A DNA stretch of 64,000 nt from a virus (IMGVR_UViG_3300020429_000539:172263-236262), one strand, 5' to 3'. Shown: positions 3,027 through 41,382, counted from the stretch's first letter. The notes: generated from the sequence alone by a model not told the origin. Numbers and translations: made by a program.

Positions 3027-3031
3027 TTGAT

Positions 3032-4371: not shown

Positions 4372-4374
4372 CGT

Positions 4375-4447: not shown

Positions 4448-4563
4448 TTTTAGGGGAGCCTCGTGGAACAGGCACTTCGCGGAAGATGGGTGCTATCTCT
4501 CCGCCCACATACGATTCCGCGACAACCCCATGAGGCGTGGACGATCGGAACCTCCTGCTCCTA

Positions 4564-4634
4564 GGGGCGTTGGTTTACAGAGATGCACGATGCTTCAATC
4601 GTCGTGTGAGGGGTTGCAATCCCCCTCCGTCCCA
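4564..4634 (+). tRNA. atypical tRNA with UCA anticodon (opal suppressor/Trp-like)
   Basis: Acceptor ggggcg/cgtccc, cgatg-ctTCAat-cgtcg, T arm agggg-ttgcaatc-cccct (8-nt loop), weak D arm. Confidence 0.55.
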
Positions 4635-4637
4635 TTT

Positions 4638-4760
4638 GCGAAAGTAGCTCAACTGGTAGAGCATCTTGCCCCATGATGGAGCGTACGCGAAGTCACAGCC
4701 AGTCCGGAACGGCTGCGGGGATCAACAAGAAGGTTAGGGGTTCGACTCCCTTCTTTCGCT
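4638..4760 (+). tRNA. Gly-like tRNA with 50-nt structured insertion in anticodon loop
   Basis: gcgaaag/ctttcgc acceptor, U73, perfect D and T arms, anticodon stem tcttg/caaga enclosing 57 nt. Confidence 0.8.
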
Positions 4761-5013: not shown

Positions 5014-5143
5014 CGTGTCCCTGCTTGATTCCGCCGAGATGCTCCTGTACCGTTACCACATACGTTGCAGGACTGGCTTCATGGGCCGTGAGACGGGACG
5101 TTCCCTCTTACACAGTCAACCGCCAGCATCAAGGAGATACATC

Positions 5144-5731
5144 ATGGCGAAGAAGGCATCCACCAAGAAGACCGGCTCGAAGGCCAAACGGACTCGTCGC
5201 GTGCGGTCCACCACCCGCTCGTCCATCATCCCCGTGTGGAGCGAGGGTCGCGAGGGCAGCAACAAGAACACGACCAAGCACAACCCCGAGGCGGGCAACC
5301 CCGATTCGCTCGTGGCGCACGTCAAGGAGTTCTTCGGCACGGTCGCCAAGCGGTTCGAGGCCAACAAGGGCTACGGTCGCCAGCACATCAACAGCAACGG
5401 CGTGGTCCATCCTGACGCGGCCCTGACCAAGAGCAATCGCGCCTGCACCAAGACGGCGATTCAGTTCATCGAGGTTCTCGCGCAGCGTGCTGCCCTCGCC
5501 GGCAACAAGGAAGCCGAGGCCATTTTCGAGGGCTCGCTGGCGACGCCCGCCGAGGCCAAGAAGTTCCTCGCCGACATCGCCAAGTTCGCCCGCGAACGCG
5601 CCAACCAGATCAAGGCCGATGAGAGCCAGGCGATTCTCGATGACATCGCCAAGGACATCGGCCTCGAAGACGGCTCGTCGCTCGTGCCCGCGTCGAAGGC
5701 CAAGGCCAAGCCGAAGGCCAAGGCTGGGTGA
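5144..5731 (+). CDS. Lys/Arg/Ala-rich putative nucleic-acid-binding protein
   Basis: SD AAGGAG, MAKKASTKKTGSKAKRTRRVR N-tail, KAKAKPKAKAG C-tail, strongly biased codons. Confidence 0.85.
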   Translation: MAKKASTKKTGSKAKRTRRVRSTTRSSIIPVWSEGREGSNKNTTKHNPEAGNPDSLVAHVKEFFGTVAKRFEANKGYGRQHINSNGVVHPDAALTKSNRACTKTAIQFIEVLAQRAALAGNKEAEAIFEGSLATPAEAKKFLADIAKFARERANQIKADESQAILDDIAKDIGLEDGSSLVPASKAKAKPKAKAG

Positions 5732-22572: not shown

Positions 22573-22892
22573 CAGACAATGAAACTGTTTAAGGTAAAAT
22601 ATGCACGATACCTAATACCCATAAGTCGCCGACTGGCTTGGGTTTAGGTTCGTTTTTTAAAAGGAATGACACTCACACCACCGAACATCGTCATCGGGGT
22701 TTGTTTTTATTAAACACACGCTGCCTAACACGCACAAGTCATTGAAAACAAAGAGTTTATGGTTTATTATTTATAATATAAATGCACACCACCGAACAAA
22801 AAGATGGGTGCATGATTCACGCCATGACAGTTGCGCGCTAGTCGAGCCACATACAAGTGAACGGTGGCGTGGTAGACTAAAGGAGCAGCAAA

Positions 22893-27028: not shown

Positions 27029-27134
27029 CCCTCCTTTCCCTTGCTCCCCGATTCATTTCGGGTCGAGCGAGGTTCTACATAGAAGATGGGTGCTAACTCA
27101 ACCCACATACGACGCTGCATCGAGGACACGCGGC

Positions 27135-27359
27135 ATGAGCGACACAATGACCGTTGGAGAACTGATCGCAGAACTCCAGAAACACGACGCGAACAAGCCC
27201 GTCTTTGTCTACGACGAGGGCGAGCCCGAATCCATCGGCCTTCTCTCCATCGACGAGGGCGAGGAAGATGGCGGGCTATTCGTGGACACGGCTTGCGACG
27301 GCGTGTATTCTGGACGCGAGCGGCCCGTGGTTCAGATTCGTGTTTCCATCCCCACATAG
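27135..27359 (+). CDS. hypothetical protein
   Basis: MTVGELIAELQKHD phage-type N-terminus; ATG 25 nt after CCACATA. Confidence 0.8.
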   Translation: MSDTMTVGELIAELQKHDANKPVFVYDEGEPESIGLLSIDEGEEDGGLFVDTACDGVYSGRERPVVQIRVSIPT

Positions 27360-27383
27360 CATCCCAAGGAAGGACCATCGACC

Positions 27384-28073
27384 ATGAGCAACAACACCCA
27401 ACCGTTTGAACCTGCCCGGTTTACTCCGACGCAGTTTAGCACTGCCGAGGTCAAGGCCAGTTTCGGCAATGACCTTGTTCGGTTCATGCTCAACGGCTTC
27501 AAGTGGGCCGACTTCTCGGATTTCGTGTACAAGAACCTGAGCAACTGCTTTGGGCACATCGCCCACTACAACCGCAGCGGCTTCTTTGACACATGGTTCA
27601 GCGAGCCGAATCAGATTCGCGCGTGGCTCGATCATGTCGCCAGCGCGACGCCCGTGGGCTCGCCTTCGCACACCTTCAGCGATTTCGAGCGAGCGTTCCA
27701 GGTCTGGCTGAGCGAGAACCGCAACGAGATTCGCGCCGCCATCGAGGGCAAGGGCTCCGAGCAGCAGGCACTCGCCGACAACGCTGGCGAGAAGGTCGAG
27801 TTTATCATCGTCGCGGTCAGCAAGAACACGGGGCCGTTCGGCCACAAGCAGCACATCCTTGTCGGTCGCAACGGCGTGGGCTTTAAGGGCGAACGCCAGC
27901 CGTCCGCGCATGTCCCCGGCAACGAGGACTTGGCCGAGGGTCGCGTGTTCGAGTGGACGGTGGACGCCGAGGGGATGCCCGTCGAGCGTCATCAGTGGTT
28001 CGAGACGACGAGCAAGATGCCCGACAAGGCTCCCGATGAAGTCATCGAGGAAGCCTTCGCAATCGCAACCTGA
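27384..28073 (+). CDS. conserved phage hypothetical protein
   Basis: LSNCFGHIAHYNRSGFFDTWF motif; 229 aa. Confidence 0.8.
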   Translation: MSNNTQPFEPARFTPTQFSTAEVKASFGNDLVRFMLNGFKWADFSDFVYKNLSNCFGHIAHYNRSGFFDTWFSEPNQIRAWLDHVASATPVGSPSHTFSDFERAFQVWLSENRNEIRAAIEGKGSEQQALADNAGEKVEFIIVAVSKNTGPFGHKQHILVGRNGVGFKGERQPSAHVPGNEDLAEGRVFEWTVDAEGMPVERHQWFETTSKMPDKAPDEVIEEAFAIAT

Positions 28074-28165
28074 TTCCTCCTTTCAACCCCCGCAAGGGGG
28101 CCGTCCCACGAAAGATGGGTGCATATACCTGTCCCACATAGGATGCAGTTATGATACCAGTCAAT

Positions 28166-28369
28166 ATGAAGATGTTTGCTATGACAACTGAGCAAGGGAC
28201 AGCCGCGTCTGAAACGGCTTTGTGCGAGATTTGCATAAAGAGCAATTCAGCAGTGCAAATTGCCCGTGATGCGGCTAGGCAATCAACAGACCTACAACCT
28301 GATCAAGAGTTTGCAGATTGTACCGGAAATGAATCTCTCTCGTGTTGCGCGTGTGGCAAATCCACATAG
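28166..28369 (+). CDS. small Cys-rich protein
   Basis: CEIC ... CCACG; ATG 25 nt after CCACATA. Confidence 0.7.
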   Translation: MKMFAMTTEQGTAASETALCEICIKSNSAVQIARDAARQSTDLQPDQEFADCTGNESLSCCACGKST

Positions 28370-28411
28370 CATAGTTTCTTCGTGCCGAGAGATAACGAAA
28401 GGAGCAACGCA

Positions 28412-28759
28412 ATGCCAATCGAATCACACAACGGAGGCGGAATGACAATCACGGGCAAGGGAGACCTGCCCAGCGGTGGGCTGAGTTTCTTCACGCTCAT
28501 CAACGCCTACCAAGCGGCCAAGATGCATGTGCAGACTGGCGGACGGATGCGGCTGACGAGGACCGCGACTCCCTCGAATCTCGTCCGCGTCCTCAACCAA
28601 CACTACCCCGACCGACCCGATGGGCCGTTCAAGGGCCGCACGATGTCCGTTCTGTTGAAGCAGATCAAGGCCGAGGTTCAGCGACAGAACGACCTCCACC
28701 GAGCCAGCCTTGACGAGGCGCAGCGAGCAGCCTTCGACCGAATCCTCAACGAATCGTGA
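28412..28759 (+). CDS. hypothetical protein
   Basis: SD GAAAGGAG. Confidence 0.8.
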   Translation: MPIESHNGGGMTITGKGDLPSGGLSFFTLINAYQAAKMHVQTGGRMRLTRTATPSNLVRVLNQHYPDRPDGPFKGRTMSVLLKQIKAEVQRQNDLHRASLDEAQRAAFDRILNES

Positions 28760-28852
28760 ACCAGCAATAATCCCCCTTATGGGGGATTTTCTATTCTGCG
28801 CACGAAAGATGGGTGCTAACCCACATACGACAACCAAGACGAACCAAGAGAC

Positions 28853-29362
28853 ATGAGCGACACAACCATCGGCCACACGAACCACGACGAAGAAACCGCA
28901 ACCGAGAACCTCCGCGAGTTTGTCGAGAACACGGCAGATGCCGACGACCTCGCCCGACTCGTCAGTCTGGTACTCGATGGCGACATCGTGACGGTCACGA
29001 TGAACAACGGCGCAACGAGCCAGCCGTTCCACGACGGGCACCTGCTGACCGCTGGCTGGCGCATCGTGATGGTTGGCGAGAAGGGCATCGAGGGCGAGAC
29101 TCTTTACTGGTCGAACGATGAAGGATGGGTGGGCCGCGAATCCGCCACGCTTTTCACGAACGACGAACGGGAGATTTATCCGTCTATCCCGCAGGGAGGC
29201 AAGTGGGAGTACGCCCATTCACTGAACGACCGCCCCACATACGATGAACTCGCGTCGGCCCTAGAGGGAATGGTGGTTGAATGGGGCAGCCGACGCGACC
29301 AGCAGAAGGCCCTCGACAACGCAATCGAAATCCTCAAGCGACTCGGAAGGGACCACGAATAA
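28853..29362 (+). CDS. hypothetical protein
   Basis: ATG 25 nt after CCACATA. Confidence 0.8.
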   Translation: MSDTTIGHTNHDEETATENLREFVENTADADDLARLVSLVLDGDIVTVTMNNGATSQPFHDGHLLTAGWRIVMVGEKGIEGETLYWSNDEGWVGRESATLFTNDEREIYPSIPQGGKWEYAHSLNDRPTYDELASALEGMVVEWGSRRDQQKALDNAIEILKRLGRDHE

Positions 29363-29574
29363 TGACCGATACATGCGAGCGGTGCGGAGCGCGAGGCCGC
29401 GCGATGACCATGAGCAAGTTCAACACGGAGATGATCTGTACGAGCGGCGACAACAACTGCAAGCAGCGCGAGCGCGAGCATCCGAAGTACGCCGAAGCAG
29501 ACAAGGCAGAATGCGAGGCCGTGCGGCGAGGGGAAACCAACTTCCCCGGCATCGGCAAACCCTCAGACCTCTAA
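29362..29574 (+). CDS. small Zn-binding phage protein
   Basis: CERC..MSKFNTEMIC...C. Confidence 0.7.
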   Translation: MTDTCERCGARGRAMTMSKFNTEMICTSGDNNCKQREREHPKYAEADKAECEAVRRGETNFPGIGKPSDL

Positions 29575-29586
29575 CGGAAGGAGCGC

Positions 29587-29823
29587 ATGAGCGACAAAGA
29601 ACCCGACACGCCCAACATGGAAGAAATCACGGTTCACGGCACGAAGGCATGGACCTACGCGACCGTGGGAGGCCGAGACTTCAAGGTCCACCAAGACGAA
29701 GAAGGCGATATCGAAATCCAAGAGCGGACAGGCGAAAACACCTGGGTTCACCGCTACGACAGCGGATACGACACGCTGGCCGAGGCGATTCTAAACCACG
29801 CCGCAATCAACGACGAATTCTGA
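29587..29823 (+). CDS. hypothetical protein
   Basis: SD AAGGAG. Confidence 0.75.
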   Translation: MSDKEPDTPNMEEITVHGTKAWTYATVGGRDFKVHQDEEGDIEIQERTGENTWVHRYDSGYDTLAEAILNHAAINDEF

Positions 29824-29949
29824 TTCCTTTCTCCCCGCAAGGGGGATTCTTTATAGAAGATGGGTGCAAAACTCACGCTATGACAGTTGCGTGCGGTCCC
29901 ACATACGAAAAACTCCGAGCATCAACACATAACGAAAGGGGCATGAAAC

Positions 29950-30339
29950 ATGCAAAGGCACGAAGTCAACGCAATCAGCGAAGAAATCATGGGCATTCTT
30001 GAGGCGGCGCAGGCCGAGGGGAAACTCCAGGGCTACGACATCAAGCGCGGCAGCGGTCGATTCGGCGCGAGCGGATTCGACATGAAAATCAGCATCACGC
30101 CCCAGCGAACCGATGCCGACCGCGCACGCATCGCCAACACGCAGACCGATGAGTTGGTCCGCCGTGGGCTCGCGGCACCAGGCACCCCTATCATCAGCGG
30201 AACGCAGCGAGGCGAAATCGTCAAGGCTCGGCGGAGCCGCTACCTTGTCAAGGGGTTCGGCGGCAAGTTCGATGGTCAGCAGTTCACGACGCTGTTTACC
30301 GCCTGCCGACTCGATGCGCCCGCCACCGCGAACGCATGA
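29950..30339 (+). CDS. hypothetical protein
   Basis: 129 aa cassette gene. Confidence 0.75.
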   Translation: MQRHEVNAISEEIMGILEAAQAEGKLQGYDIKRGSGRFGASGFDMKISITPQRTDADRARIANTQTDELVRRGLAAPGTPIISGTQRGEIVKARRSRYLVKGFGGKFDGQQFTTLFTACRLDAPATANA

Positions 30340-30417
30340 CCCAAACCCCCGCAAGGGGGATATCATAGAAAAGATGGGTGCCTGACCACATACGAAAACT
30401 CGCATCGCCCGATGACC

Positions 30418-31026
30418 ATGAAAACAACTTTCCTACCATCGTTTGAGGTTTGCGACATCGAGGGCAACGAGCATATCGTGGACATGCTGCTTGCCGAGGC
30501 GGACGACGACAGCCGCATGGTTCTCATGTTCGTGCCCGGCACGACTGAGACAGCCCCCGCCGATTCGTTGGAGTTTCACGACAACGAGATTCAAGGGTGG
30601 TGGGACCACGCAATGCCACACATGAGAGAGGCCCCGTGCGTCTGCGAGCCCTGCACAACAGACCCCGGCGGTAACTGCGTCAACTGCCTGCGACCCGCTG
30701 GGCCTGTGACCAATCTCGACCGATTCGTTGAACTCGCGGGCGACCTTATCCGCGCCGACGAGAGGCGAGAGGATACGGGCAACGCCGCCCGTGCGCTCCG
30801 CGAGTTTATCGTGGACACGCTCAAGCGACCCGACCCGCTCGGGCTCATCCCTTCCGACATGCCAACGCTTGCGACCGTCACGGAGCAGGGCGAACTTATC
30901 GGACAATCGCCGTGCGGAAGGGACAACAACGGGTGCGAAGAAGAATACGAATACGAGGGGCATAGGTACATCGTCGGATGGGAGCCGGGCAAGGATTCGT
31001 GGTTCTATCGCAAGGAGGAAGAATGA
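30418..31026 (+). CDS. hypothetical protein
   Basis: ATG 25 nt after CCACATA. Confidence 0.8.
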   Translation: MKTTFLPSFEVCDIEGNEHIVDMLLAEADDDSRMVLMFVPGTTETAPADSLEFHDNEIQGWWDHAMPHMREAPCVCEPCTTDPGGNCVNCLRPAGPVTNLDRFVELAGDLIRADERREDTGNAARALREFIVDTLKRPDPLGLIPSDMPTLATVTEQGELIGQSPCGRDNNGCEEEYEYEGHRYIVGWEPGKDSWFYRKEEE

Positions 31027-31241
31027 CCCTCAAGGAAATACTCGAAGCCCTCGACGGCTACGGGCTCATCCTGACAGATGACGAACTCATCGAAGAAAGG
31101 TTGAAGGAACTGGGTATCGACATCGCCAAGCCCGTGCAGTAAGCCAATAGAGCCCAGAAATGGGTTCTTTTCCGCGCACAAAAGATGGGTGCTAGCCACA
31201 TACTACTGCGTGCTGCTATCATTCACTGATTGGAGGCAACG

Positions 31242-31538
31242 ATGCAAGTAAAGCAGGCCGTGGATTTCGCTGAGCAGTTTCTACGCAAGGTCGTCGGACC
31301 TGGCATGTTGCACCGAATGGCCCCCGAGCCGTGTCCCGAGGGGACTTTCATCGGGCAGTATGACAGCAAGGCGCAACTCTACAGCGTCGCCATCAAGCCG
31401 ACGCACGACAGCCGTGGCACGCCCTACATCTCTGTTCACATTCAGACCGCCGACGATGCCGAGAAGCGCAGCGGCGACTGGCGGATTTACAGCGAGGCGG
31501 GCGATTGGGATTTGCCGCGCCGTCCGCTTTGCCCTTGA
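31242..31538 (+). CDS. hypothetical protein
   Basis: SD GGAGG. Confidence 0.75.
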   Translation: MQVKQAVDFAEQFLRKVVGPGMLHRMAPEPCPEGTFIGQYDSKAQLYSVAIKPTHDSRGTPYISVHIQTADDAEKRSGDWRIYSEAGDWDLPRRPLCP

Positions 31539-31586
31539 CCCACATACGAATACCTGCCCGTCCCGTAGCATGAAAGGAGCAACGAC

Positions 31587-31934
31587 ATGCGAACCGCTTA
31601 CCACTACAACGGGCACCTCATCGACATCTGGGAGGACCGCGAGGACGATAACATCAAACTGTTTCATGATGTGTTCCCGCCCGGCGCGTGGACCGGCAAG
31701 GGCGAAGTCACGGGCCGCGACTGCCGCGCCTGCAAGATGCTCGACCTATCACCGTACGGCACGAACGACCTCACGCTCTGCGCCGCGATGATCGACCTCG
31801 GATTCCCGACCCGCGAGGACATTCTGCCGAACGGCAGCATCGGCCCGCTCCACCGCGAGGATGTGGAAACCCTCTGGCGGGCGAAGTTCGGCGACAAGCC
31901 GATGCCGACGATGGACGACCTCACCCAACTCTAA
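31587..31934 (+). CDS. hypothetical protein
   Basis: SD GAAAGGAG at predicted +1. Confidence 0.8.
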   Translation: MRTAYHYNGHLIDIWEDREDDNIKLFHDVFPPGAWTGKGEVTGRDCRACKMLDLSPYGTNDLTLCAAMIDLGFPTREDILPNGSIGPLHREDVETLWRAKFGDKPMPTMDDLTQL

Positions 31935-32037
31935 CCAAACGGAGCCCCCGCAAGGGGGATACTTCATAGAAGATGGGTGCATAGTCGTTGACCACATAGC
32001 ATAGTTGCGCCTCGTCATGCGATGAAAGGAGCAACAC

Positions 32038-32397
32038 ATGGCAAAGTTTCAGCGAACCCCGCAGCCCCACCACCGCGAAGTCACCGAGGCCGAGATGGAC
32101 CGTCTCGTGGACTGGATCGCGGAAATGAATCGACGGTATTACGAGGCCAACTTCCCGCGCCTCACGCCGCCGACCTTCCGCTACCAGATGGGTCCGACGA
32201 ACATCAAGGTGATCGTAGTCGGCGACGACGGCAAGGACCGCAGCGTGTGGTGCTTCGTCGAGAAGGCGAGCGGCGCGATCATGAAGGCCGCCGGATGGAA
32301 GGCCCCCGAGCCCAAGCGGTACGAGCGCGGAAATGTCCACCTGCCCGAGGGTTGGGCCAAGTGGCTCACCCCCAACGGTCCCCAGTATCTCAACTGA
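32038..32397 (+). CDS. conserved phage protein (SV..FV.K..G.I.KAA.WKAP family)
   Basis: Motif familiar from myovirus hypotheticals; SD GAAAGGAG. Confidence 0.75.
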   Translation: MAKFQRTPQPHHREVTEAEMDRLVDWIAEMNRRYYEANFPRLTPPTFRYQMGPTNIKVIVVGDDGKDRSVWCFVEKASGAIMKAAGWKAPEPKRYERGNVHLPEGWAKWLTPNGPQYLN

Positions 32398-32653
32398 GAC
32401 CAGGCACTCCCCATTCGTGGGGAGTTTCTTTCGCGCGCACAAAAGATGGGTGCAACCCCACATAGCTACCAGCTTCGGCGTCTTCAAGCATGGACACCGA
32501 TAGCCTCAAGTTTGAAGTCTTCCAGCTTCGGCAGCGAATCGAGCGAATCGTCCGGCGTCGGGGGATTGTCGAGTCGCACATAGCTATCCGCGCGGTCGCC
32601 ATTCTTAGCGTTCGCGTTCGGCTGCTTGAGGTTCAGATCAGAAAGGGCAACAC

Positions 32654-32986
32654 ATGAAAAGCGTACACGGCAAGCTCGGCAACATGCGGAAGGCGGTTAG
32701 CTGGACCGTTTACCCCAACAGCTACAACGAGAGCAAGAGCGAGACAGCGGGCGCGCGGACCATCTTCATCCAGAGCGACAAACGAGCCTGCGCTATCAAT
32801 GTCGAGACCGGCAAGGGTATGCTCAGCAACGGGCGCGGACACCCCGGATTCCATTCGACGATGCCCGCGCTCGGGGCCAAGGAGGTCGATGTCCCGCGCG
32901 AGTTCATCGACGAATGCCTGAAAGCTCAGCCCAAGAGCGGCGACACCATCGGACGCGCGGGCACCGCCGTTGTTCGCATCGCATAA
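32654..32986 (+). CDS. hypothetical protein
   Basis: SD GAAAGGG. Confidence 0.75.
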   Translation: MKSVHGKLGNMRKAVSWTVYPNSYNESKSETAGARTIFIQSDKRACAINVETGKGMLSNGRGHPGFHSTMPALGAKEVDVPREFIDECLKAQPKSGDTIGRAGTAVVRIA

Positions 32987-33080
32987 CCAAACGCCCCACA
33001 AGGGGCAACTGCTACAAAAGATGGGTGCTAGAACACATACGGTAGAAGCGGGCGACCATGCCATGAAAGGAAGGCAAACC

Positions 33081-33506
33081 ATGACCGCAACCACGACAGC
33101 ATTCAAGTACCGGGCCGTTTATCTTTCCGCCGACACGGAAGAGGACAAGTGGGGCGACGGATGCCAGCCCGGCACGCGCTGCTGCAAGATGGACCAGAAA
33201 ATCAGTGTCGAGTCCGATTCGCTCAAGGGCCTGCTTGAAACTCTCGCGCAAGAGTGGGGGTTCAGCGAAGAACCCAGCGACGGCTGGATCATGATGCGTA
33301 ACCATGACGACACGGTGCGCCTCATCTATCAGCAGAACGAGAACGCGGACGGGCACCCCCTGACCGACAGCGAGCGCGAACGCTGGAAGAAGAACGAGAT
33401 CAAGGTCTGGCTCGCGGATTATTCGTTCACGGTCGAGAAGGCCCCCGCCGAGACATTCATCATCGGCGACGACGAGGCCGAGAGCATCGGGCTGGAAGTT
33501 AGTTGA
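33081..33506 (+). CDS. hypothetical protein
   Basis: SD GAAAGGAAGG. Confidence 0.8.
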   Translation: MTATTTAFKYRAVYLSADTEEDKWGDGCQPGTRCCKMDQKISVESDSLKGLLETLAQEWGFSEEPSDGWIMMRNHDDTVRLIYQQNENADGHPLTDSERERWKKNEIKVWLADYSFTVEKAPAETFIIGDDEAESIGLEVS

Positions 33507-33588
33507 CGCCAACTCTCCCCATAAGGGGAGGGCCTCGCAAAAGATGGGTGCTACTCGCACATAGCACCGCGCGACAGCCCCGTAGGGC

Positions 33589-33702
33589 ATGAACCTACTC
33601 ATGCTCATCATAAGCATCATCATCCTCATGGTCAAGTACTGGTACATTTCCGTGCCCGTGCTTGGCATCATCGCATTCCTCTGGGCGAAGGCGCAGGACT
33701 GA
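33589..33702 (+). CDS. 37-aa membrane micro-protein (not in ORF track)
   Basis: MNLLMLIISIIILMVKYWYISVPVLGIIAFLWAKAQD; ATG 25 nt after GCACATA. Confidence 0.7.
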   Translation: MNLLMLIISIIILMVKYWYISVPVLGIIAFLWAKAQD

Positions 33703-33750
33703 CCACATAGGTTAGTTTCAGGCACCCGTGGCATGAAAGGAAGGCAAACC

Positions 33751-34155
33751 ATGACACGCGACGACCTGACCCCATTCGCCCGAGGATACATTCAAGGGCT
33801 GCTCGCCACCAGTCTCGATGACGACCAGGAGCCGCTGGACGCCAACTACGATATCGAGGACATTCACCCCGATTCGCTTGAGAAGATCGCCGACGATTGC
33901 GCCAAGTTCGTCGCGGCGAATGAATCGCACTACGCCGATGCCGAGAATCTTTCCTGCTCGGACGGCATCTGGAAGCCCGCCGAATCCGCTGGCCTTGATT
34001 TCTGGCTGACGCGCAACGGCCACGGAAGCGGATTCTGGGACCCCGACCGCAAGCGGCACTATGGCGAGGCGAACGCGGAAGCGATGAACGCCTACAGCGA
34101 AGCCGCCGGCGGATGCGACGCCTACATCGGCGATGATGGCAAGGTCCACATCTGA
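33751..34155 (+). CDS. conserved phage protein
   Basis: AGLDFWLTRNGHGSGFWD motif. Confidence 0.8.
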   Translation: MTRDDLTPFARGYIQGLLATSLDDDQEPLDANYDIEDIHPDSLEKIADDCAKFVAANESHYADAENLSCSDGIWKPAESAGLDFWLTRNGHGSGFWDPDRKRHYGEANAEAMNAYSEAAGGCDAYIGDDGKVHI

Positions 34156-34306
34156 TCCTTTCCCCCTCCCCGCCGCAAGGCGGGTTGTAGGGGTGCATAG
34201 ATAAAGATGGGTGCTATCACTGTTTGGCATGCGCAAGTTAGTAGTTGCTATTTTCGTGCCACATAGTTTATATTCTGCGCGCCGAGGATTGAAAGGAAGG
34301 CAACCC

Positions 34307-34819
34307 ATGACAATCACAGCCGATAGCAACACGATTTTCCACGCCAAGAAGATCAGCCGCTCGCGGTGGGGGTTCGAGTTTCATCCGAATCTCACCGAGG
34401 TCGAGCGCGTCCGTTGCGTCGTGGAGTTCAACTACAAGCGCGGCACGGTATTCGTGACGACCGCCGAGAATCGAGACCTGAAAGCCCCCGGCGACGACTA
34501 CTACGAGTGGGACGCCATCGTGGAGGCGGGCAAGTCCTACATGGTCGGTTCGGATGTTCCGACCGATTCGTTCCTGAAGTCTCATTCGTCGTACATCCCC
34601 GCAGACCACTGGCTCGCGTTCGCCGTTGATTGGGCGTTCAAGAATCCCACGCAGCGGCTCATCGTCACCAAGCACAGCGGCCAGCCGCTCCACTACGAGG
34701 TCTACAAGCGCGGCGACTATGTTGAGATCGCGCTGCCCCACCACGGGCAAGGCGGAGAGAAGCACTGGGCGGTCCACGCCGACAGCCCCCGCAAGAAACT
34801 GCTCATCAATGTTGATTGA
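34307..34819 (+). CDS. hypothetical protein
   Basis: SD GAAAGGAAGG. Confidence 0.8.
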   Translation: MTITADSNTIFHAKKISRSRWGFEFHPNLTEVERVRCVVEFNYKRGTVFVTTAENRDLKAPGDDYYEWDAIVEAGKSYMVGSDVPTDSFLKSHSSYIPADHWLAFAVDWAFKNPTQRLIVTKHSGQPLHYEVYKRGDYVEIALPHHGQGGEKHWAVHADSPRKKLLINVD

Positions 34820-34923
34820 CGGGCACCTGCCCGACAGCCCCGCAAGGGGCAAGCCCTATAGAAGATGGGTGCAAGGCCACATAGCATAGTTGTTGCGGCT
34901 CGTCGATTATAAGGAGCAACACA

Positions 34924-35163
34924 ATGGACGCCCAGAACATCAGCATGATTCAGCACCACGCCCAGACTCTTCTTCGCGAATCGGGCTATAACGCCTCGAT
35001 TCTCAAGGGCGAGGGACGCAAGGGCGAGGATTATAGCCGCGCCATGGGGCTCTGGAAGGATTCGTGCAAACTCGTCCGCGAAGTGTTCCCCGAGGATGAG
35101 GCCGAGCGCATGATCGAAGCCACCTGGAACCCGAATAAGGTTGCGTTCCTGGAGAAGGCCTAA
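34924..35163 (+). CDS. hypothetical protein
   Basis: SD AAGGAG. Confidence 0.75.
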   Translation: MDAQNISMIQHHAQTLLRESGYNASILKGEGRKGEDYSRAMGLWKDSCKLVREVFPEDEAERMIEATWNPNKVAFLEKA

Positions 35164-35195
35164 CCACATACAGGCACCGCGCGAGGACGATGAAC

Positions 35196-35375
35196 ATGAG
35201 CAACACGAAGCAAACCAAGACCGATGGACCGACTCTTTGCTGCCCGTTTGGGCGCACGCCCGGCTACCCCTGCCGCATCTGTCGAGGCTCAGCCGTAACA
35301 GCCTACAACGGCATGAGCCGCGAGGAGCGCGACAAGCGTGACGCGCAAGCCCGATTCTCACAGTCCTGCAAGTAA
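35196..35375 (+). CDS. small Cys-containing protein
   Basis: ATG 25 nt after CCACATA 35164. Confidence 0.7.
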   Translation: MSNTKQTKTDGPTLCCPFGRTPGYPCRICRGSAVTAYNGMSREERDKRDAQARFSQSCK

Positions 35376-35459
35376 CCCCGAAAGGGGAACGACGCGAAAG
35401 ATGGGTGCAAGGCCACATAGGTTAGTTGTCCGCTCTCGTGCGATGAAAGGACAGCAACC

Positions 35460-35819
35460 ATGAAGACCCTGAAACTGAAAGACTTTCCGACTCTCGCGGC
35501 CCAAGTCAAGCGGTGGGTGCCCGGCTACCGTAAGCACAGCGTTATGGTGGCGGTCGCCGAGCGCGAAACCCCGTTCGGGTGGTGGTGGGACGAGGGCAGC
35601 AAGAGCGACTATGCTACGGCCCGCATCGGCGGCAGCGGCACGACTCCCTGGTACCCTCCGCAATACCCCGAGACGAAGGCCCAGCCGATTCCGACCGGCG
35701 GCGAGACTGTCGTGGTCGAGACCGGGGTATTCTGCGGCAAGCCCGCGACGATGCAACTCACCATCCACCCCAACGACCTCGCCCGCCTGGGCCTGAGCCC
35801 CGAGGACACGAAGCGATAA
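35460..35819 (+). CDS. hypothetical protein
   Basis: cassette gene, SD GAAAGGA. Confidence 0.8.
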   Translation: MKTLKLKDFPTLAAQVKRWVPGYRKHSVMVAVAERETPFGWWWDEGSKSDYATARIGGSGTTPWYPPQYPETKAQPIPTGGETVVVETGVFCGKPATMQLTIHPNDLARLGLSPEDTKR

Positions 35820-35914
35820 GCAAGGAGACCCCCGAAAGGGGGATATCATAGAAAAGATGGGTGCTAACGCACATAGGTTAGTTTGTTCGTGCCGAGGAAT
35901 GAAAGGAGCCAACA

Positions 35915-36124
35915 ATGGCATGGAACAAACTCCCCAAGTCTCGACCCGCGAAGCCCAAGCTCGACAAGTTTGACCTCGAAGCCGAGGCCGAGGGCAACGC
36001 AATCCGCACCGGCCCCACCGTCATCGGGCCCGTGGGCAAGCGCATCGCCCGCACGCGACGCGAACACGACCGAGGCAACGCCATCGCCGAGCGCGCCGCC
36101 ACCCGCCACATCCAAGTTGCCTAA
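35915..36124 (+). CDS. small basic protein
   Basis: cassette gene, SD GAAAGGAG. Confidence 0.75.
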   Translation: MAWNKLPKSRPAKPKLDKFDLEAEAEGNAIRTGPTVIGPVGKRIARTRREHDRGNAIAERAATRHIQVA

Positions 36125-36221
36125 TCGGGCACCCTCCCCAAGAGGGAGGCGTCGCATAAAAGATGGGTGCTAGAACACATAGGTTAGTTTCCTTTGCCCG
36201 TGGGTTGAAAGGAAGCCAACC

Positions 36222-36470
36222 ATGACCGAAATCGCTTACCCCCGTCGAACGCTCCAGAGTCTTTCACCGTTCCGCGAAATCATCGCCGTGGAGCCCCACA
36301 TGACGGCCATCCCCGCGTACTCGGACAAGCCGACCATGACGCTCGACGAAATGCGGACGCACGCCAAGAAGAATGGCGGAGGCACGATCATGCAGCAAGA
36401 TGATTCGATGCTCCCGCCGTTCGTGCTGACCAAGTACGACGCCGAGGGCAATGTCGCCAGCGTTTCCTAA
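36222..36470 (+). CDS. hypothetical protein
   Basis: cassette gene. Confidence 0.75.
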   Translation: MTEIAYPRRTLQSLSPFREIIAVEPHMTAIPAYSDKPTMTLDEMRTHAKKNGGGTIMQQDDSMLPPFVLTKYDAEGNVASVS

Positions 36471-36639
36471 ACTACCAGGCACCTCCCCTTGAGAAAGGGA
36501 GGATGCCTCGCAAAAGATGGGTGCTAAGTTATCAACCGCTATCAATCTTTATCCCACATAGGATAAGTCTTTGATATCGTGGGACAGTTGAGCGAGTTGC
36601 TCAAGTCAGAAACGGAAACCCTTTTTCAAGGAGATTCAT

Positions 36640-36858
36640 ATGTCCGCCAACAGCATCGAGATCGCCCTGCTCCACCCCCGCGCCGCCAAGCCCCTCGGCA
36701 AGATCAACCGCGTGCCGACCGTGGCCAGCGACGGCTCGATGACCGTCAACTACAAGGGCCGCAAGTTCTCGGTCCTCAACCTCGACGGCAAGAGCGTCCT
36801 GTACGTCAACCGCCCGCTCGGCTCCGAATACAAACAGCGCGAGGCCGTGGCCGCGTGA
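36640..36858 (+). CDS. hypothetical protein
   Basis: SD AAGGAG, terminator after. Confidence 0.75.
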   Translation: MSANSIEIALLHPRAAKPLGKINRVPTVASDGSMTVNYKGRKFSVLNLDGKSVLYVNRPLGSEYKQREAVAA

Positions 36859-36988
36859 CCACACAGCAAACCGTCCCCTCCCGGTGTTTGGACTCCGCCG
36901 GGAGGGGCGGTTTTTCCGCGCACAGAAGATGGGTGCTAACGCACATACGATGAACTCCGCCGCCCGTGGGTTGAAAGGAAACAAACCC

Positions 36989-37255
36989 ATGAACATCGGA
37001 AACCTCATCGTTCAGACCATCGACCGCTCGCGCCTCTGCATCGACGGCGAGATCGACACGGGCGAGAACAACGGTTCGGGCGAAATCATCGTCCGCGCAA
37101 CAGGCGCGACGCCCATCACGGCCCGCTCATTCCAGTTTACGGGCGTGACCGTCGAGACAAGCGGCGACTACGCCACATGGAGCGAGGACAACCTTAAGGA
37201 CGAGGCCGCGCAGATGCTCGCCCGCGACTACACCGAAGAAGTGGACGAGGACTAA
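36989..37255 (+). CDS. hypothetical protein
   Basis: cassette gene. Confidence 0.75.
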   Translation: MNIGNLIVQTIDRSRLCIDGEIDTGENNGSGEIIVRATGATPITARSFQFTGVTVETSGDYATWSEDNLKDEAAQMLARDYTEEVDED

Positions 37256-37304
37256 CCCACATAGGTTAGTTTCAGGCACCCGTGGGTTGAAAGGAACCCA
37301 AGCC

Positions 37305-37532
37305 ATGACCGAAACCAAGAATGAAACCGTCTACGATGCCCTGAAGAACGCGGGCTGCAAGTTGGACAATCACGAATCGGACCTCTATGTAGAGGACACC
37401 GCGACGGCCCGCGAGATCATCGCCCGATTCGACCTCAAGGCCAAGCCGTTCCGAAGCCAGATCGACCAGGCCATGTGGCTCGAACTCCCCTTCATGCACC
37501 AGCCGTTCTGGGACCGCAAGGCGAGGGGATAA
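37305..37532 (+). CDS. hypothetical protein (DNHESDLYV motif)
   Basis: cassette gene. Confidence 0.75.
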   Translation: MTETKNETVYDALKNAGCKLDNHESDLYVEDTATAREIIARFDLKAKPFRSQIDQAMWLELPFMHQPFWDRKARG

Positions 37533-37685
37533 CGGACCTTTCAGACCGCTGACCCGCCCGAGCGCAACCGCGAGGCGTTCCACCCCGAGACGCCTGGCGG
37601 GCGCGGTCTTTAATATCGCACAGAAGATGGGTGCATGAACACATAGCATAGTCCGCCATCCCCGAGCGATGAAAGGAAGCAAACC

Positions 37686-37886
37686 ATGAGCGACCCACGC
37701 ACGACCCCCGAGCAGCCCTTCGATGACTTCGACACGCAGAGGCAGGTGGAAGAAGAGTATCCCGACCCGCCCTATGATGGCGCGGACGAGGACGGGCTCA
37801 CGGACGTTGAAGCCGACGCCATGACCCTCCGCGACTGCGGCATGGGCACGGACGAGGACTATGGCTTCGCGGCGGACATTATCTAA
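37686..37886 (+). CDS. small acidic protein
   Basis: cassette gene. Confidence 0.75.
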   Translation: MSDPRTTPEQPFDDFDTQRQVEEEYPDPPYDGADEDGLTDVEADAMTLRDCGMGTDEDYGFAADII

Positions 37887-37981
37887 CCTCAACACCCCGC
37901 AAGGGGGGCAGCATAGAAAAGATGGGTGCCTGACCACATACGAAATACTGCCAGTCCCGAGCGATGAAAGGAACCCAAGCC

Positions 37982-38260
37982 ATGAACATCAAGCCCGTAG
38001 CCAAGCGATTCTATGATGACCTCATGCTCGACTCGATGCCGTCGTCGCTCGCCGTTCTCGTGGACTTCGGATTCAATCACGCCCACCCGCAGAAGCGGCT
38101 TTATGAGGCCTATCAGAAGGGAGCCCGCGCGGGCACCTTCACGCTCGAAGAAATGAGCGAAGCCGTTGGCGACGGTCCCGCCCTGACCCGACTCATTCAG
38201 CGCGTCGATTCGTCCCTCGAAGTTGTGACCGACTACGACTTCCTGGACGAGCCGATGTAA
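37982..38260 (+). CDS. hypothetical protein
   Basis: cassette gene. Confidence 0.75.
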   Translation: MNIKPVAKRFYDDLMLDSMPSSLAVLVDFGFNHAHPQKRLYEAYQKGARAGTFTLEEMSEAVGDGPALTRLIQRVDSSLEVVTDYDFLDEPM

Positions 38261-38374
38261 ACCACCCAAGCCCCCTCCACCGAGAGGGGAGCGGTCATAT
38301 AAAAGATGGGTGCATAACTCACATTCCCACATACAAACTTTTCCGCGCGCCGAGAAATGAAAGGACGCGGAACT

Positions 38375-38737
38375 ATGAAAGCCTCAGAACTCGAAAAGCA
38401 ACTGCCGCCCATCGCCCGTGGGCTCTACAACCTGAAACGGTGCTTTGGCTCGAACGCTACCATCGGCATCGTGCTAGGACCCGGCTGTAGGACCGGCCAC
38501 TATCGAACCCTCGCCGAACTTGAGGACGCGGGCCACATCCCACCAGGCTACAGGCACCTAGACCCGTATCTGGCAGCCGTTCCGACCGTCTACACATGCA
38601 CGACGGAAGAAGTCGAACTCATCCCCAGCCGCAACCCAGAAGGCCCAGAGTGCCCGTGGGTCGAGGCAAACCGCAGAGCAGCGGAAGCCCGCGCACGAGT
38701 CGCCCGCAAGCGAGAAATCGCCCGCCTCAACACATAG
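38375..38737 (+). CDS. hypothetical protein
   Basis: cassette gene. Confidence 0.75.
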   Translation: MKASELEKQLPPIARGLYNLKRCFGSNATIGIVLGPGCRTGHYRTLAELEDAGHIPPGYRHLDPYLAAVPTVYTCTTEEVELIPSRNPEGPECPWVEANRRAAEARARVARKREIARLNT

Positions 38738-38777
38738 GATAATCTCACGCGCCCGAGGCATGAAAGGACGGGCAACT

Positions 38778-39236
38778 ATGACCGAGGCAGAAACCAAAAT
38801 CCTCCCCAACCCCTCAATCGTGCAAATCAGAGAGGACTTCAGCCGCGAATGGCTGCGCACGAACCGAATCGACCGCGTGATGGGGCAGTACGCCTACGAT
38901 GCTGCAAAGCAGGTCCACTGCTGCGAAATCACGCCGAGTTATGAACTCACCTTCATCCGATACGAGGCCGTCTACGCCGAGGGATACGAGCCCGACGACG
39001 AGACCCGCGAGCATATCGAGGTCGAACTGACCGAGGCCAGCGCAATCGACCAGGGCGTCATCTATATCCACTGCCGCTCGGTCGATGCAATCGCCGAGGT
39101 CGCCGAACTGTCAGACATCCCAACGGGCGAGCCGTGGCGCATGGCTTGGAATAAGGAGGACGAGAGGCACGACCGCGACGACTCGGACGAGCAGGTCGAA
39201 GAGGTCCGCGAATACTTCAACTGCAATCACCACTGA
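38778..39236 (+). CDS. hypothetical protein
   Basis: cassette gene. Confidence 0.75.
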   Translation: MTEAETKILPNPSIVQIREDFSREWLRTNRIDRVMGQYAYDAAKQVHCCEITPSYELTFIRYEAVYAEGYEPDDETREHIEVELTEASAIDQGVIYIHCRSVDAIAEVAELSDIPTGEPWRMAWNKEDERHDRDDSDEQVEEVREYFNCNHH

Positions 39237-39336
39237 CCAACCCCTCCCCCTTGAGAAAGGGGAGGCCACGCACAGAAGATGGGTGCTAGAACACATACGA
39301 TATCTTTCCGCGCACGAGACGAGAAGGGAGCCGACA

Positions 39337-39588
39337 ATGAGAATCACGATCGATACCGACGAGTCATACGCCCCAGGCTGCTTCCTGCTCTGCCAGGTCG
39401 ATGACTCGGACAACTGGGATACGCGCGACGAATCGCGTACCATCCTCGTCCAGCGAGATACAGACTTTCCCGCGATGGCCCGAAACTTCGGCTGGACCGG
39501 CGAGGACTCGGATATCGAGCAAGCCGTGGACTATCTTCACGATACCGCGTGCGGAGAGATCATCGACGACCCCGGCTATTTCAACTGA
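39337..39588 (+). CDS. hypothetical protein
   Basis: SD GAAGGGAG. Confidence 0.75.
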   Translation: MRITIDTDESYAPGCFLLCQVDDSDNWDTRDESRTILVQRDTDFPAMARNFGWTGEDSDIEQAVDYLHDTACGEIIDDPGYFN

Positions 39589-39635
39589 CCCACATAGGTT
39601 AGTTTCTGCCGCCCGTGGCATGAAAGGAGTCAACA

Positions 39636-39833
39636 ATGACTTGGGAAGAATTCGTCAAGGCGTGCAACAAGGCCGTGGAGCGCAAGATCGGGATGCATCG
39701 GGACGACCTCCCCGATACCATCGACCTGGCGGACTACTGGGACGAGTCAATGAGCCGCGAGGACTGCGAGCGCGCCGCCAAGGAATTCGCCGACGACCTC
39801 GTGAGCGAGCAAATGGAAGAAATGGGATTCTGA
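39636..39833 (+). CDS. small acidic protein
   Basis: SD GAAAGGAG. Confidence 0.75.
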   Translation: MTWEEFVKACNKAVERKIGMHRDDLPDTIDLADYWDESMSREDCERAAKEFADDLVSEQMEEMGF

Positions 39834-39936
39834 ACGGAGCCCCCGAAAGGGGGATATCATGCAAAAGATGGGTGCTACTCGCTCTCGCTCCCACATAGTT
39901 TATCATTCGCCGCCCGTGGGTCGAAAGGAGCAAACA

Positions 39937-40404
39937 ATGCTTAGCCACCTGACCCGCCTCATCGGAATCGTCAACGCCTGCAACGCCGCTCTCGCGAACC
40001 TCTCCGACCCCCGCAGCCTTGCCGAGGTTGCCACGATGAAGCAAACCGCCGAGATCCTGATGTCCTCGCTCGCGACCGATGACCCCAACCGCGACGCGAC
40101 GCTCGAACTCGTCTGGGCCAGCCCGCTCAACTTCGCCCTCGCCTGCCAGGTCGTCAACGAGAACCCCGCCGAGGATGTCGAGACGACGCTCTACCTCATC
40201 GCCGAACGCTGCTACCTTGTCGCCGATGCGACCGAGACGGGCACCCGCGAGACCGTGATGCACGAGCCGCACCCGATGGATCGCAAGGTCTCGCTCGCCG
40301 CCAGCATCCGCCGTGGGGCGTGGGGACCGTTCCACCGCCAGCAGAAGTACCCGAGCAAGCCCAGGGGCTCGACGCTCAGCGACAAGCGCAAGGCCGTGGC
40401 CTAA
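39937..40404 (+). CDS. hypothetical protein
   Basis: last cassette gene, SD GAAAGGAG. Confidence 0.8.
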   Translation: MLSHLTRLIGIVNACNAALANLSDPRSLAEVATMKQTAEILMSSLATDDPNRDATLELVWASPLNFALACQVVNENPAEDVETTLYLIAERCYLVADATETGTRETVMHEPHPMDRKVSLAASIRRGAWGPFHRQQKYPSKPRGSTLSDKRKAVA

Positions 40405-40654
40405 CTAACCACCTCACAGCACACACGAACTAACTAGCCCCTAACTTAGGGGTTATGTTAGCTTAACTAATATGCACGCCACCTAACATATGGTAGGCTG
40501 TATAGAAGATGGGTGCAAAACTGTTTTGGGGTAGCCCCCACCATACTCCCCATTTTCCTAAAACTAAGGTATCCATATTGGGGGTATGGGTTCCCTTTTG
40601 GTATATCTACCCTTTTTATGGAGGAGCTAAAACGCTTTTGGAACATTAGGAGAT

Positions 40655-41083
40655 ATGCCCACAAACGACCCAGAAAAACAGAAGCAATATAGGCGAGAAT
40701 ACTACCATCGTAATAAAGACAGGATTCTCAAAGAGCTAAAAGAGCAGCGTATCCGCGACAATGGTGGCGAATATAGAAAACCTGGCAGACCCAAAATAAA
40801 TGAAGAAGCTAAGCGTGCCGCGCGGAGAAGGTATAAAAAGCGGATAAGAGATGAGGCTTTATACTATATAGATGAATACAAAAAGCAACATCCGTGCATT
40901 CGGTGTGGTGAGACCCATGTAGGATGCTTACAGTTTCACCATACAGACCCTAATGCCAAAGAAGGCAACGTATCAGCCCTAGTTAAGAAAGGTATCAAGG
41001 CTGTCAAAGAAGAGATAAAGAAGTGCGATGTGCTTTGCGCAAACTGCCATATGAAACTACATTACGAGGAACGTCAGGCCTAG
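40655..41083 (+). CDS. HNH endonuclease
   Basis: CIRCG...LQFHHTDP...KCDVLCANCHMKLH. Confidence 0.85.
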   Translation: MPTNDPEKQKQYRREYYHRNKDRILKELKEQRIRDNGGEYRKPGRPKINEEAKRAARRRYKKRIRDEALYYIDEYKKQHPCIRCGETHVGCLQFHHTDPNAKEGNVSALVKKGIKAVKEEIKKCDVLCANCHMKLHYEERQA

Positions 41084-41382
41084 GCGGGCCATACTCCCCA
41101 TTAAACATATAGGGACTCCCATCGCTCCAGGGGATACCTTAGAGGCATCTCCTCGACGCTTTCTTCGAGAACGAGACCCCCACCCCCATAAAAACGCATA
41201 GGGACTCCTAGGCAAAATAAACCGCGCGAGGCCCGGAAAATTCCGGACACAAAAAATCGCGCAGAACAATCGATATCCTAGCGGTATTGCCGCTGACTGC
41301 ATCCCACTGCACGAAGCGGCGATGAATTCGCGCAAAAGAGAGTGAACTAATAGTATGGCTTCATCGCATTGGGCGATACGAA

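Follow-up and report, generated by a model that had tools for sequence, protein, structure and literature searches.

A repeated promoter-type module in a high-GC gene block of a marine megaphage as a probable site of gene exchange

The DNA analyzed here, a stretch of 64,000 nucleotides referred to as the window, corresponds to bases 172,263–236,262 of a single viral contig of 488,051 bp (IMGVR_UViG_3300020429_000539), which is listed in its collection as a complete virus with direct terminal repeats. The source is a complete, uncultivated marine megaphage of ∼0.49 Mb. The genome encodes a gyrase, a ribonucleotide reductase, a portal-like protein, many tRNAs, and tail and fibre proteins that reach 3,258 aa. 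It falls into three compositional domains: a left arm, a central 50-kb block (contig 162.9–212.8 kb; 55%–59% GC), in which about a hundred genes, small and mostly orphan, run one way, and a right arm. The median GC content at third codon positions (GC3) is 0.72 in the block, compared with 0.53 in the left arm (read on the minus strand) and 0.44 in the right arm. Within the window, the block occupies positions 1–40516 on the + strand, and its layout recalls that of an early or host-takeover region. The region under study, at 27030–40404 on the + strand, forms the final 13 kb, or distal quarter, of the block and holds 34 predicted open reading frames (ORFs), two of them short and doubtful, together with 22 copies of a full composite module and 32 CACATA[CG] boxes. 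The reading favored here, to which a probability of about 70% is given, is that the block consists of ∼70 promoter-led mini-units in which the module is both promoter and recombination site, resembling the promoter-early stem-loops (PeSLs) of T4-type phages but with another promoter code.

Each module follows the same order: a stop codon, a GC hairpin directly 3′ of it, the element AGATGGGTGC with an A-rich 5′ flank, CCACATA(C/G), exactly 24 nt, and then either an ATG or GAAAGGA plus an ATG. When one mismatch is allowed, AGATGGGTGC is matched 32 times in the window, 31 of these exactly and all on the + strand, against 3.97 ± 1.95 expected from shuffled sequence. All of the window copies lie within the high-GC block (4484–40507). 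The entire contig has 36 exact copies, again all on the + strand and found only at contig 162,946–212,769; 22 copies fall within 27030–40404. Inside the block are 71 of the 91 copies of CACATA[CG] on the + strand of the contig, and 7 of the 32 on the minus strand. Outside the block, the box occurs at or below chance, and an ATG is present at +31 (counted from the C of CACATA) in just 1 of 45 sites.

In all 22 copies within the region, AGATGGGTGC is followed 4–45 nt later by CACATA[CG], most commonly after 5 nt, and is preceded by a GC hairpin at a distance of 9–29 nt (≤21 nt in all but one). A hairpin score of at least 12 was obtained for 21 of 23 copies in 27030–40600, as opposed to 154 of 500 windows of 48 nt drawn at random from the array. 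Half of the loops (11/22) are of the GNRA type. A T-rich tail (≥5 T in the next 8 nt) follows only 4 of the 22 hairpins, and most of them are therefore not canonical intrinsic terminators; hairpin-plus-T terminators were not enriched (17 versus 14.8 ± 3.5 expected). The original prediction had described 27030–40404 as an array of single-gene cassettes, each closed by a hairpin terminator and with a 25-nt spacer after CACATA. The modules, their hairpins, and the fixed spacer are indeed present, but the spacer measures exactly 24 nt after a 7-nt box, and a label as canonical terminator suits only the few hairpins with a T-rich tail. With 34 ORFs and 22 full modules, the units comprise one to three genes and are not strictly single-gene. 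Likewise, 27030–40404 is dense in modules, but the true array begins ∼36 kb upstream. Genes without a full module, including the inner genes of a unit, have the box alone, in places within the end of the preceding gene.

All modules of the region are on the + strand; the positions given after each range are those of AGATGGGTGC, the box, and the start codon. The ATG lies at +31 in modules 1 (27047–27134, hairpin at 27047–27062; 27084, 27104, 27135), 2 (28087–28165, hairpin CCCCC-GCAA-GGGGG; 28113, 28135, 28166), 3 (28769–28852, hairpin with a T-rich tail; 28807, 28822, 28853), 5 (30346–30417; 30372, 30387, 30418), 8 (32406–32489, hairpin with a T-rich tail; 32444, 32459, 32490), and 10 (33513–33588; 33542, 33558, 33589), the last of which precedes a short, doubtful ORF. 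Module 4 (29830–29949; 29858, 29900, 29950) has a hairpin, a 32-nt insert between AGATGGGTGC and the box, and a Shine-Dalgarno (SD) sequence. It is followed by modules 6 (31149–31241; 31183, 31197, 31242), 7 (31945–32037; 31971, 31993, 32038), and 9 (32993–33080; 33019, 33034, 33081). Module 11 (34169–34306; 34205, 34260, 34307) contains a 45-nt insert. Further along are modules 12 (34820–34923; 34863, 34878, 34924), 13 (35376–35459; 35399, 35414, 35460), 14 (35829–35914; 35855, 35870, 35915), and 15 (36133–36221; 36161, 36176, 36222). Module 16 (36486–36639; 36515, 36555, 36640) has a 30-nt insert and is atypical in its downstream part, and the hairpin of module 17 (36895–36988; 36927, 36942, 36989) is followed by a T-run. 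The series is completed by modules 18 (37591–37685; 37625, 37640, 37686), 19 (37895–37981; 37920, 37935, 37982), 20 (38272–38374; 38304, 38328, 38375), 21 (39247–39336; 39277, 39292, 39337), and 22 (39840–39936; 39866, 39892, 39937). A last AGATGGGTGC at 40507–40516, without hairpin or box, marks the right edge of the block.

Box-only promoters, also on the + strand, are found at 27353–27383, within the end of the upstream gene, and at 35165–35195, with the ATG at +31 in both (27384 and 35196). Those at 28363–28411 (start 28412) and 31541–31586 (start 31587) are of the SD type. Two more, at 33704–33750 (start 33751) and 37258–37304 (start 37305), are near-copies of each other, and others lie at 38731–38777 (start 38778) and 39591–39635 (start 39636). 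The original prediction had singled out the sequences at ∼33704 and ∼37258 as near-identical, with variants elsewhere; their spacers agree at 21 of 22 positions and have relatives at 36176, 39591, and 35870, as had been claimed. Overall, 55 module pairs show at least 14/22 spacer identity, compared with ∼8 in column shuffles, and two pairs that are 21/22 identical stand ahead of unrelated genes. This likeness ahead of unrelated genes indicates that the modules have been copied or converted independently of the genes.

The sole diverged relative compared is G001, a 104-kb record of the viral collection that was found by a scan for the composite module (four exact copies). From 13 kb to its end, G001 is collinear with contig 219–305 kb. 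Of this ∼90-kb backbone, 83% is aligned in blocks ≥700 nt long (74%–87% identity), whereas only 37% of the array range is aligned. The first 8 kb of G001 are the homologue of the array. Nine copies of AGATGGGTGC and 15 boxes lie there, always on the + strand, and none elsewhere on the record. The grammar and the sequence of the box are the same as in the megaphage, with an ATG or SD at +31. Homologues in G001 exist for 11 of the 34 array ORFs (58%–89% amino acid identity), and the remaining 23 have none anywhere on its 104 kb. G001 in turn has private cassettes, that is, stretches with modules of their own and no homologue in the megaphage genome. A comparison with a relative had been set beforehand as the test of cassette shuffling; by this test the array is not syntenic, and the breakpoints lie within modules.

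Other scans gave the following. Single-protein scans of the viral contigs yielded no relative, nor did an alignment of the ATPase of the block against viral_contigs or genome_contigs. Homologues of this ATPase in the protein database stand at 88%–89% and 50%–54%, and the GenBank phage collection has no similar record by DNA or by the ATPase protein. Variants of array proteins or of the ATPase occur on contigs of 17.5, 40.9, 46.0, and 200 kb, on contigs of 117–169 kb at ∼50% identity, and on 1.3-kb contigs with homologues at 72%–82%. The composite module pattern was matched in the genome_contigs scan by seven singletons only; these seven loci, and a match in the record G002 that lies inside a 378-aa ORF, were rejected as chance singletons. 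A 35%-GC contig recovered through alignment of the ORF at 34307–34819 was likewise set aside as an unrelated phage, with 1 of 36 proteins in common plus HNH matches.

Five differences are seen between the array and its G001 homologue: three indels, one moved gene, and one 6.3-kb block. The switch points of all five are inside AGATGGGTGC or CCACATA cores, and each leaves one chimeric module. Event A (28143–28362) comprises a low-GC3 gene that is absent from G001 and has CCACATAG on both sides. Event B (28829–29899) comprises three genes (28853–29362, 29404–29574, and 29587–29823), also absent from G001, with the 11-nt CCCACATACGA at both ends. In event C (31982–32443), a DUF7717 gene (32038–32397) bounded by AAGATGGGTGCA is absent from G001, and the joint there is a 13-nt duplication scar. 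For events A–C, the single module of G001 has its left half from the upstream module of the window and its right half from the downstream one. Event D (39337–39588) is a moved gene, the G001 homologue of which (85% amino acid identity) lies between the homologues of 32654–32986 and 33081–33506. It is flanked there by two modules, both derived from the window module at 33019 (module 9), which has a 23-nt identical core in common with the module at 39277 (module 21). Event E (34215–40506) spans 6.3 kb and 18 ORFs and is bounded by AAGATGGGTGC at 34205, in module 11, and at 40507, the final copy of the element. Seventeen of its ORFs have no homologue on G001, and the eighteenth is the moved gene at 39337–39588. 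All five events are on the + strand.

The ORF at 28151–28369 is the sole low-GC3 ORF of the array (0.42, compared with ∼0.75 in its neighbours). It is absent from G001 and is possibly a recent arrival.

These comparisons provide good evidence, on one relative, that the modules act as sites of gene exchange, and the earlier proposal that genes are gained, lost, and shuffled at them is upheld to that extent. In the mechanism envisaged, the recombination sites would be the 8- to 23-nt cores, which are repeated at intervals of a few hundred bases and always in the same orientation. Through them, genes would be excised, inserted, or relocated from one module to another, with a chimeric, working module left behind each time, and a captured ORF would be expressed at once.

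One alternative, albeit an unlikely one, is that the modules are regulatory signals only, in which case illegitimate recombination or slippage would occur anywhere and the survivors would end in noncoding modules, the module being a mark of the exchange and not its cause. Several observations count against an active role of the modules and in favor of this explanation. Viable indels must be intergenic, and since the intergenic DNA of the array is almost wholly module, breakpoints are to some extent bound to fall in modules. The common cores are just 8–23 nt long, and the neighbouring HNH insertion (below) used an unrelated 14-nt repeat. Near-identical populations show no variation: contigs of two DNA runs from different studies are 100% identical and bridge many modules, with their order unchanged and without joints or indels (array bins without contig cover in these runs are uninformative), and 10 of 10 array proteins checked occur letter for letter on 42–116 assemblies. 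Variants of the array proteins with >90% identity co-occur on contigs of 17–200 kb. The lack of cassette polymorphism in near-identical populations indicates that turnover is slow relative to strain-level divergence. A single relative without an outgroup, moreover, does not give the direction of the events. A passive role of the modules sits poorly, however, with the position of all five switches in the identical core itself, each with one intact chimeric module, and with the movement of a gene between two modules that have a 23-nt identical core. Nor would it explain the copying of module spacers between unrelated genes, and the two genomes are much less rearranged in their backbone. An active role in gene exchange is therefore preferred.

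Loose contig ends at 31169/31202 and 31589 result from cross-matching with paralogous modules (25305 and 20740).

One further difference between the two genomes lies just beyond the array. An HNH endonuclease gene (40655–41083, + strand; GC3 0.44) is absent from G001 and is carried by an insertion at 40545–41103 that is flanked by a 14-nt direct repeat, CCATACTCCCCATT. This is a separate event that was not module-mediated and looks like the presence or absence of a homing endonuclease.

The promoter anatomy was derived from an alignment of all 71 boxes of the block. In class 1 (27/71), the ATG lies at exactly +31 with no SD sequence between. In class 2 (22/71), an SD of the GAAAGGA type ([AG]A[AG]GGA) is found at +31, often with AT before it, and the start codon is at +45 to +47. 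The other 22 boxes are irregular, including those ahead of tRNAs or inside genes. A C-A dinucleotide at ∼+30/+31 is present in both classes, and cCGTGg at +22 to +27 is conserved in class 2 only, at the position that a −10 site would take if CCACAT were a −35 with a 17-bp spacer.

Comparison with G001 shows which parts of this arrangement are kept. All 11 orthologous promoter pairs retain the same spacing between the box and +31, even at a spacer identity as low as 10/24; for the promoter at 27353, +31 is kept at a spacer identity of 11/24. In contrast, the distance from the SD to the ATG shifts by 1–2 nt in five of seven SD-type pairs. A fixed box-to-+31 distance beside a drifting SD-to-ATG distance identifies +31 as the constrained landmark, as expected of a start site. 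A stable hairpin lies just 5′ of AGATGGGTGC in both phages at seven of seven orthologous junctions, and the stems differ in at least four of them; it is thus apparently the hairpin structure, and not the sequence of the stem, that is kept between the two phages.

Some individual modules deviate from the general pattern. In one orthologous module of G001 (5140–5160), the element is degenerate (AAAATGGGTGC) and the GC hairpin is missing, but the box and its spacing are kept, from which the box would be the more indispensable part. The modules at 22812–22846 and 29868–29898 of the window have the same insert of ∼21 nt (TCACGCYATGACAGTTGCGYGC) between AGATGGGTGC and the box. The insert is a possible operator, and the G001 module ahead of the homologue of the gene at 29950 is without it.

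Very likely, the module array serves as the grammar by which an early-type gene block is transcribed. From the alignments, we infer the site of initiation, the leaderless character of some transcripts, and the role of the hairpin at RNA ends. Transcripts would most likely start 24 nt past the box, at +29 to +31. About a third of the genes (class 1) would then have the ATG at the start point without an SD, so that this class plausibly gives rise to mRNAs that look leaderless, and another third (class 2) would have GAAAGGA at the start point with the ATG 14–16 nt further on, giving leaders of ∼15 nt that open with an SD. The box is probably read as a −35-like element by the host core polymerase together with one of four phage sigma-family proteins; four sigma-70-family ORFs with region 4 are present in the phage genome, and in class 2 only, the box and cCGTGg suit a −35/−10 pair ∼17 bp apart. 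The hairpin may be an RNA 3′-end or attenuator element. AGATGGGTGC may belong to the same promoter as an upstream element, may act together with the hairpin, or may be a separate promoter that is used at another time.

The RNA polymerase (RNAP) subunit families PF00562 and PF00623, for which controls were positive, are absent from the genome; the search with PF00940 was uninformative, its control being silent. Pfam and PHROG scans of 14 large ORFs gave lectin, kelch, tail, and protease domains or nothing, and no polymerase. Promoters of the sigma-70 consensus are not enriched (4 versus 4.1 ± 2.3 expected in shuffles). Certain features fit less well with this account. A box at −32 to −25 leaves an unusually short distance to a −10 of the sigma-70 type, and the gap between AGATGGGTGC and the box ranges over 4–57 nt in the block, which is odd for one composite promoter. 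An ORF of 2,769 aa has no family match and may be a very divergent phage RNAP. Contigs from RNA libraries overlap the array in places, and several of them run across whole modules. Two such contigs start at 39323 (box + 31) and 26596 (box + 26) and were not used as evidence, because contigs cannot show transcript starts and DNA carry-over into RNA libraries is possible. In one RNA run, the bin 33514–34014 reached a summed contig depth of 1,894; the contigs of this run that align to the sequence are mostly only 90%–95% alike and thus probably come from other organisms.

A bolder version of this account is put forward only tentatively: CCACATA(C/G)-N24 would be a new class of promoter, read by a megaphage sigma factor and starting on the A of the ATG, and the module would be a universal “socket.” If so, the phage would have a leaderless regulon of 27 genes and, as its sister class, genes with SD leaders of 15 nt, and any ORF recombined between two sockets would be transcribed and translated at once. 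With such sockets, a half-megabase phage could replace two thirds of the genes in a 13-kb set and still keep a collinear backbone. The block's high GC3 (0.72 versus 0.44–0.53) would be a by-product of frequent recombination through GC-biased conversion or, alternatively, a match to host codons before the phage tRNAs are made.

The box could instead be a single −10-type element like that of T4 late promoters, which depend on gp55, with transcription starting ∼7 nt after it. Class 1 transcripts would then not be leaderless and would have 17-nt leaders without an SD, and class 2 transcripts would have leaders of ∼33 nt with one. In line with this, the box is one strongly conserved block of 8–9 nt in an otherwise weak promoter, and in modules with a 5-nt gap, the −35 and spacer positions would be taken up by AGATGGGTGC with its flank. 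We consider this improbable, as it offers no reason for an invariant 24 nt to the ATG in 27 genes, a distance that is also held in four of four diverged class 1 orthologues despite changed spacer sequence. It would also leave a 17-nt class 1 leader with no ribosome-binding signal, and the conserved C-A at +30/+31 speaks against it.

Compared with a −10-type box, initiation at a hairpin has even less to recommend it. The early promoters of phage N4 are of the hairpin type and are read by the virion RNAP, and this recognition is sequence-specific. Were the hairpin and AGATGGGTGC an N4-like promoter for a phage or virion RNAP, the hairpin would not be a terminator, which agrees with its nearly fixed distance of 9–21 nt from AGATGGGTGC and with the 18 of 22 hairpins that have no T-rich tail; the 2,769-aa ORF without a family match could be counted on the same side. 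This is nevertheless very unlikely: neither the large ORFs tested nor a genome search with Pfam RNAP families revealed an RNAP domain, the sense strand reads GNRA in half of the loops, a sign of a role at the RNA level, the hairpins directly follow stop codons, and stems and loops vary freely between orthologues. Initiation 24 nt past the box thus remains the preferred account of the promoter.

Short phage-specific boxes in place of host elements have precedents. The T4 middle MotA box lies near −30, and T4 late promoters carry the element TATAAATA; Thermus phages have leaderless middle and late mRNAs. The box of the array is similar in kind to the T4-type elements and would be centred at ∼−28 if the start is at +31, and the Thermus phage mRNAs are a precedent for leaderless phage mRNAs. 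It differs from these systems in the sequence of the box and in having no visible −10 of the sigma-70 type.

A mechanism of this kind is already published for T4-type phages. PeSLs are described as modules that mediate gene exchange in the hyperplastic regions of these phages, with about 50 per genome and conservation spread over ∼100 bp (Arbiol et al. 2010, PMC2839356; Comeau et al. 2014, PMC4122927). For ORF192 of RB49 and phi1, the pattern of a single chimeric module is drawn in the first of these (PMC2839356). The likeness to the array is extensive. Both have a composite module of stop codon, stem-loop, promoter, SD, and start codon; both have tens of copies (36 and 71 of the two motifs here), mostly before ORFans and in variable regions; and in both a cassette between two modules in one phage corresponds to a single chimeric module in the other. 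Of four PeSL features compared, three are present in the array, namely the composite module (22/22), the ORFan-rich variable region, and the module-bounded indels A, B, C, and E with the moved gene D. The fourth, a sigma-70 consensus promoter, is not, and the array is therefore a PeSL variant and not a PeSL. PeSL promoters, as described there, consist of the sigma-70 consensus with an AT-rich upstream part, whereas the array uses a lineage-specific pair of boxes and a fixed 24-nt spacer. In addition, the array has a class without an SD, its stem-loop is always 5′ of the promoter, all copies are confined to a single high-GC block (50 kb) of a 0.49-Mb genome, and the identical cores measure 8–23 nt as opposed to the ∼100-bp-wide conservation reported for PeSLs. 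Excised mini-circles, another PeSL feature, were not seen in the assembled contigs of the two DNA runs. The activity of PeSLs has been shown by reporter assays; the promoter and terminator proposed here are predictions from DNA sequence.

The original prediction had likened the array to an integron, and although a one-way array of small unrelated ORFs with variable content, parted by hairpins, does recall one, promoterless cassettes moved by a site-specific recombinase at structured sites are hardly credible here, as the 488-kb genome has no tyrosine recombinase (PF00589; control positive in 14 of 14 genomes), the hairpins are perfect GC stems of 12–20 nt that are not attC-like, each cassette has its own promoter, and the crossovers are homology-based and lie in promoter motifs and not in hairpins.

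Hendrix and colleagues are said to have described the morons of lambdoid phages as single extra genes with their own promoter and terminator. The array resembles these in that extra genes with their own signals are placed between resident genes. Morons, however, are single and scattered in the late regions of prophages and have unrelated signals, whereas the megaphage has ∼70 units built on one module. Literature searches with the motif strings returned unrelated primer coincidences only. Among the matches listed for huge, mega, or jumbo phages, none mentioned leaderless mRNAs, a promoter motif, or hyperplastic regions.

The products of the array are for the most part without recognizable relatives. 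Pfam assigned no family to 29 of the 34 products scanned (those of the 32 larger array ORFs and of the next two ORFs downstream), and the small number of PHROG matches were to families of unknown function. No paralogues were found among the 87 ORFs of the block (0 non-self matches). The earlier suggestion that these genes serve anti-defence or host takeover has no support beyond their position and size. None of 32 array products matched the defence-system models of PADLOC, and PDB sequence searches with three proteins and one profile gave no matches. Two confident AlphaFold models, of the products of 38375–38737 (predicted local distance difference test [pLDDT] score 92.3) and 34307–34819 (pLDDT 80.6), had no Foldseek match in the PDB at E ≤ 0.001, and their best VIA Z scores were 2.5 and 3.9, respectively. 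Homologues of the ORF at 34307–34819 occur in unrelated genomes of 35%–51% GC without modules, and three metagenome contigs of 1–2 kb that carry such a homologue are also without any module. The ORF at 38375–38737 is a member of a small family without a name, which comprises 20 representative clusters and is found in proteins of 108–1,166 aa, one of them with nine repeats.

Elsewhere in the block, a tRNA cluster lies at window positions 2521–4760, with five tRNA-Leu, Val, and Met. A full AGATGGGTGC-CCACATAC module at 4484–4512 precedes a tRNA-SeC call by ARAGORN (4564–4634); Rfam instead gives a 123-nt tRNA match at 4638–4760. A module upstream of such an element indicates that the grammar would drive RNA genes too. 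In window 1–42000, Rfam found only tRNAs. At the left edge of the high-GC block, ∼8.7–9.0 kb before the window and adjoining the first copies of AGATGGGTGC, six minus-strand CACATA[CG] boxes (contig 163,244–163,532), 43–93 bp apart, alternate with CTAGCACTGAT-type repeats in noncoding DNA. The cluster may represent an origin, an array of decoys or iterons, or a divergent control region. Another oriented repeat, GAACCACCTACAGA(A), belongs to a distinct motif class that is missing from the high-GC block: the left arm (1–160 kb, minus strand) has ∼10 copies, read along the genes, and the right arm (214–488 kb) has ∼10 reverse-complement copies on its + strand.

Huge phages carry hundreds of orphan genes, the acquisition, expression, and loss of which are largely unexplained, and the array offers a concrete mechanism. 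One short module would be the site of transcription start, translation start, and recombination in an uncultivated 0.49-Mb marine phage, and G001 shows the products that such a mechanism predicts: chimeric modules, a moved gene, and private cassettes. The PeSL idea, documented so far for T4-type phages with sigma-70 promoters, would thereby be extended to another lineage and another promoter code. The strict spacing from the box to the ATG provides a sequence rule for the annotation of ∼70 gene starts and a candidate leaderless regulon, and the 23 genome-private ORFs provide functional screens with a delimited group of genes that were exchanged recently.

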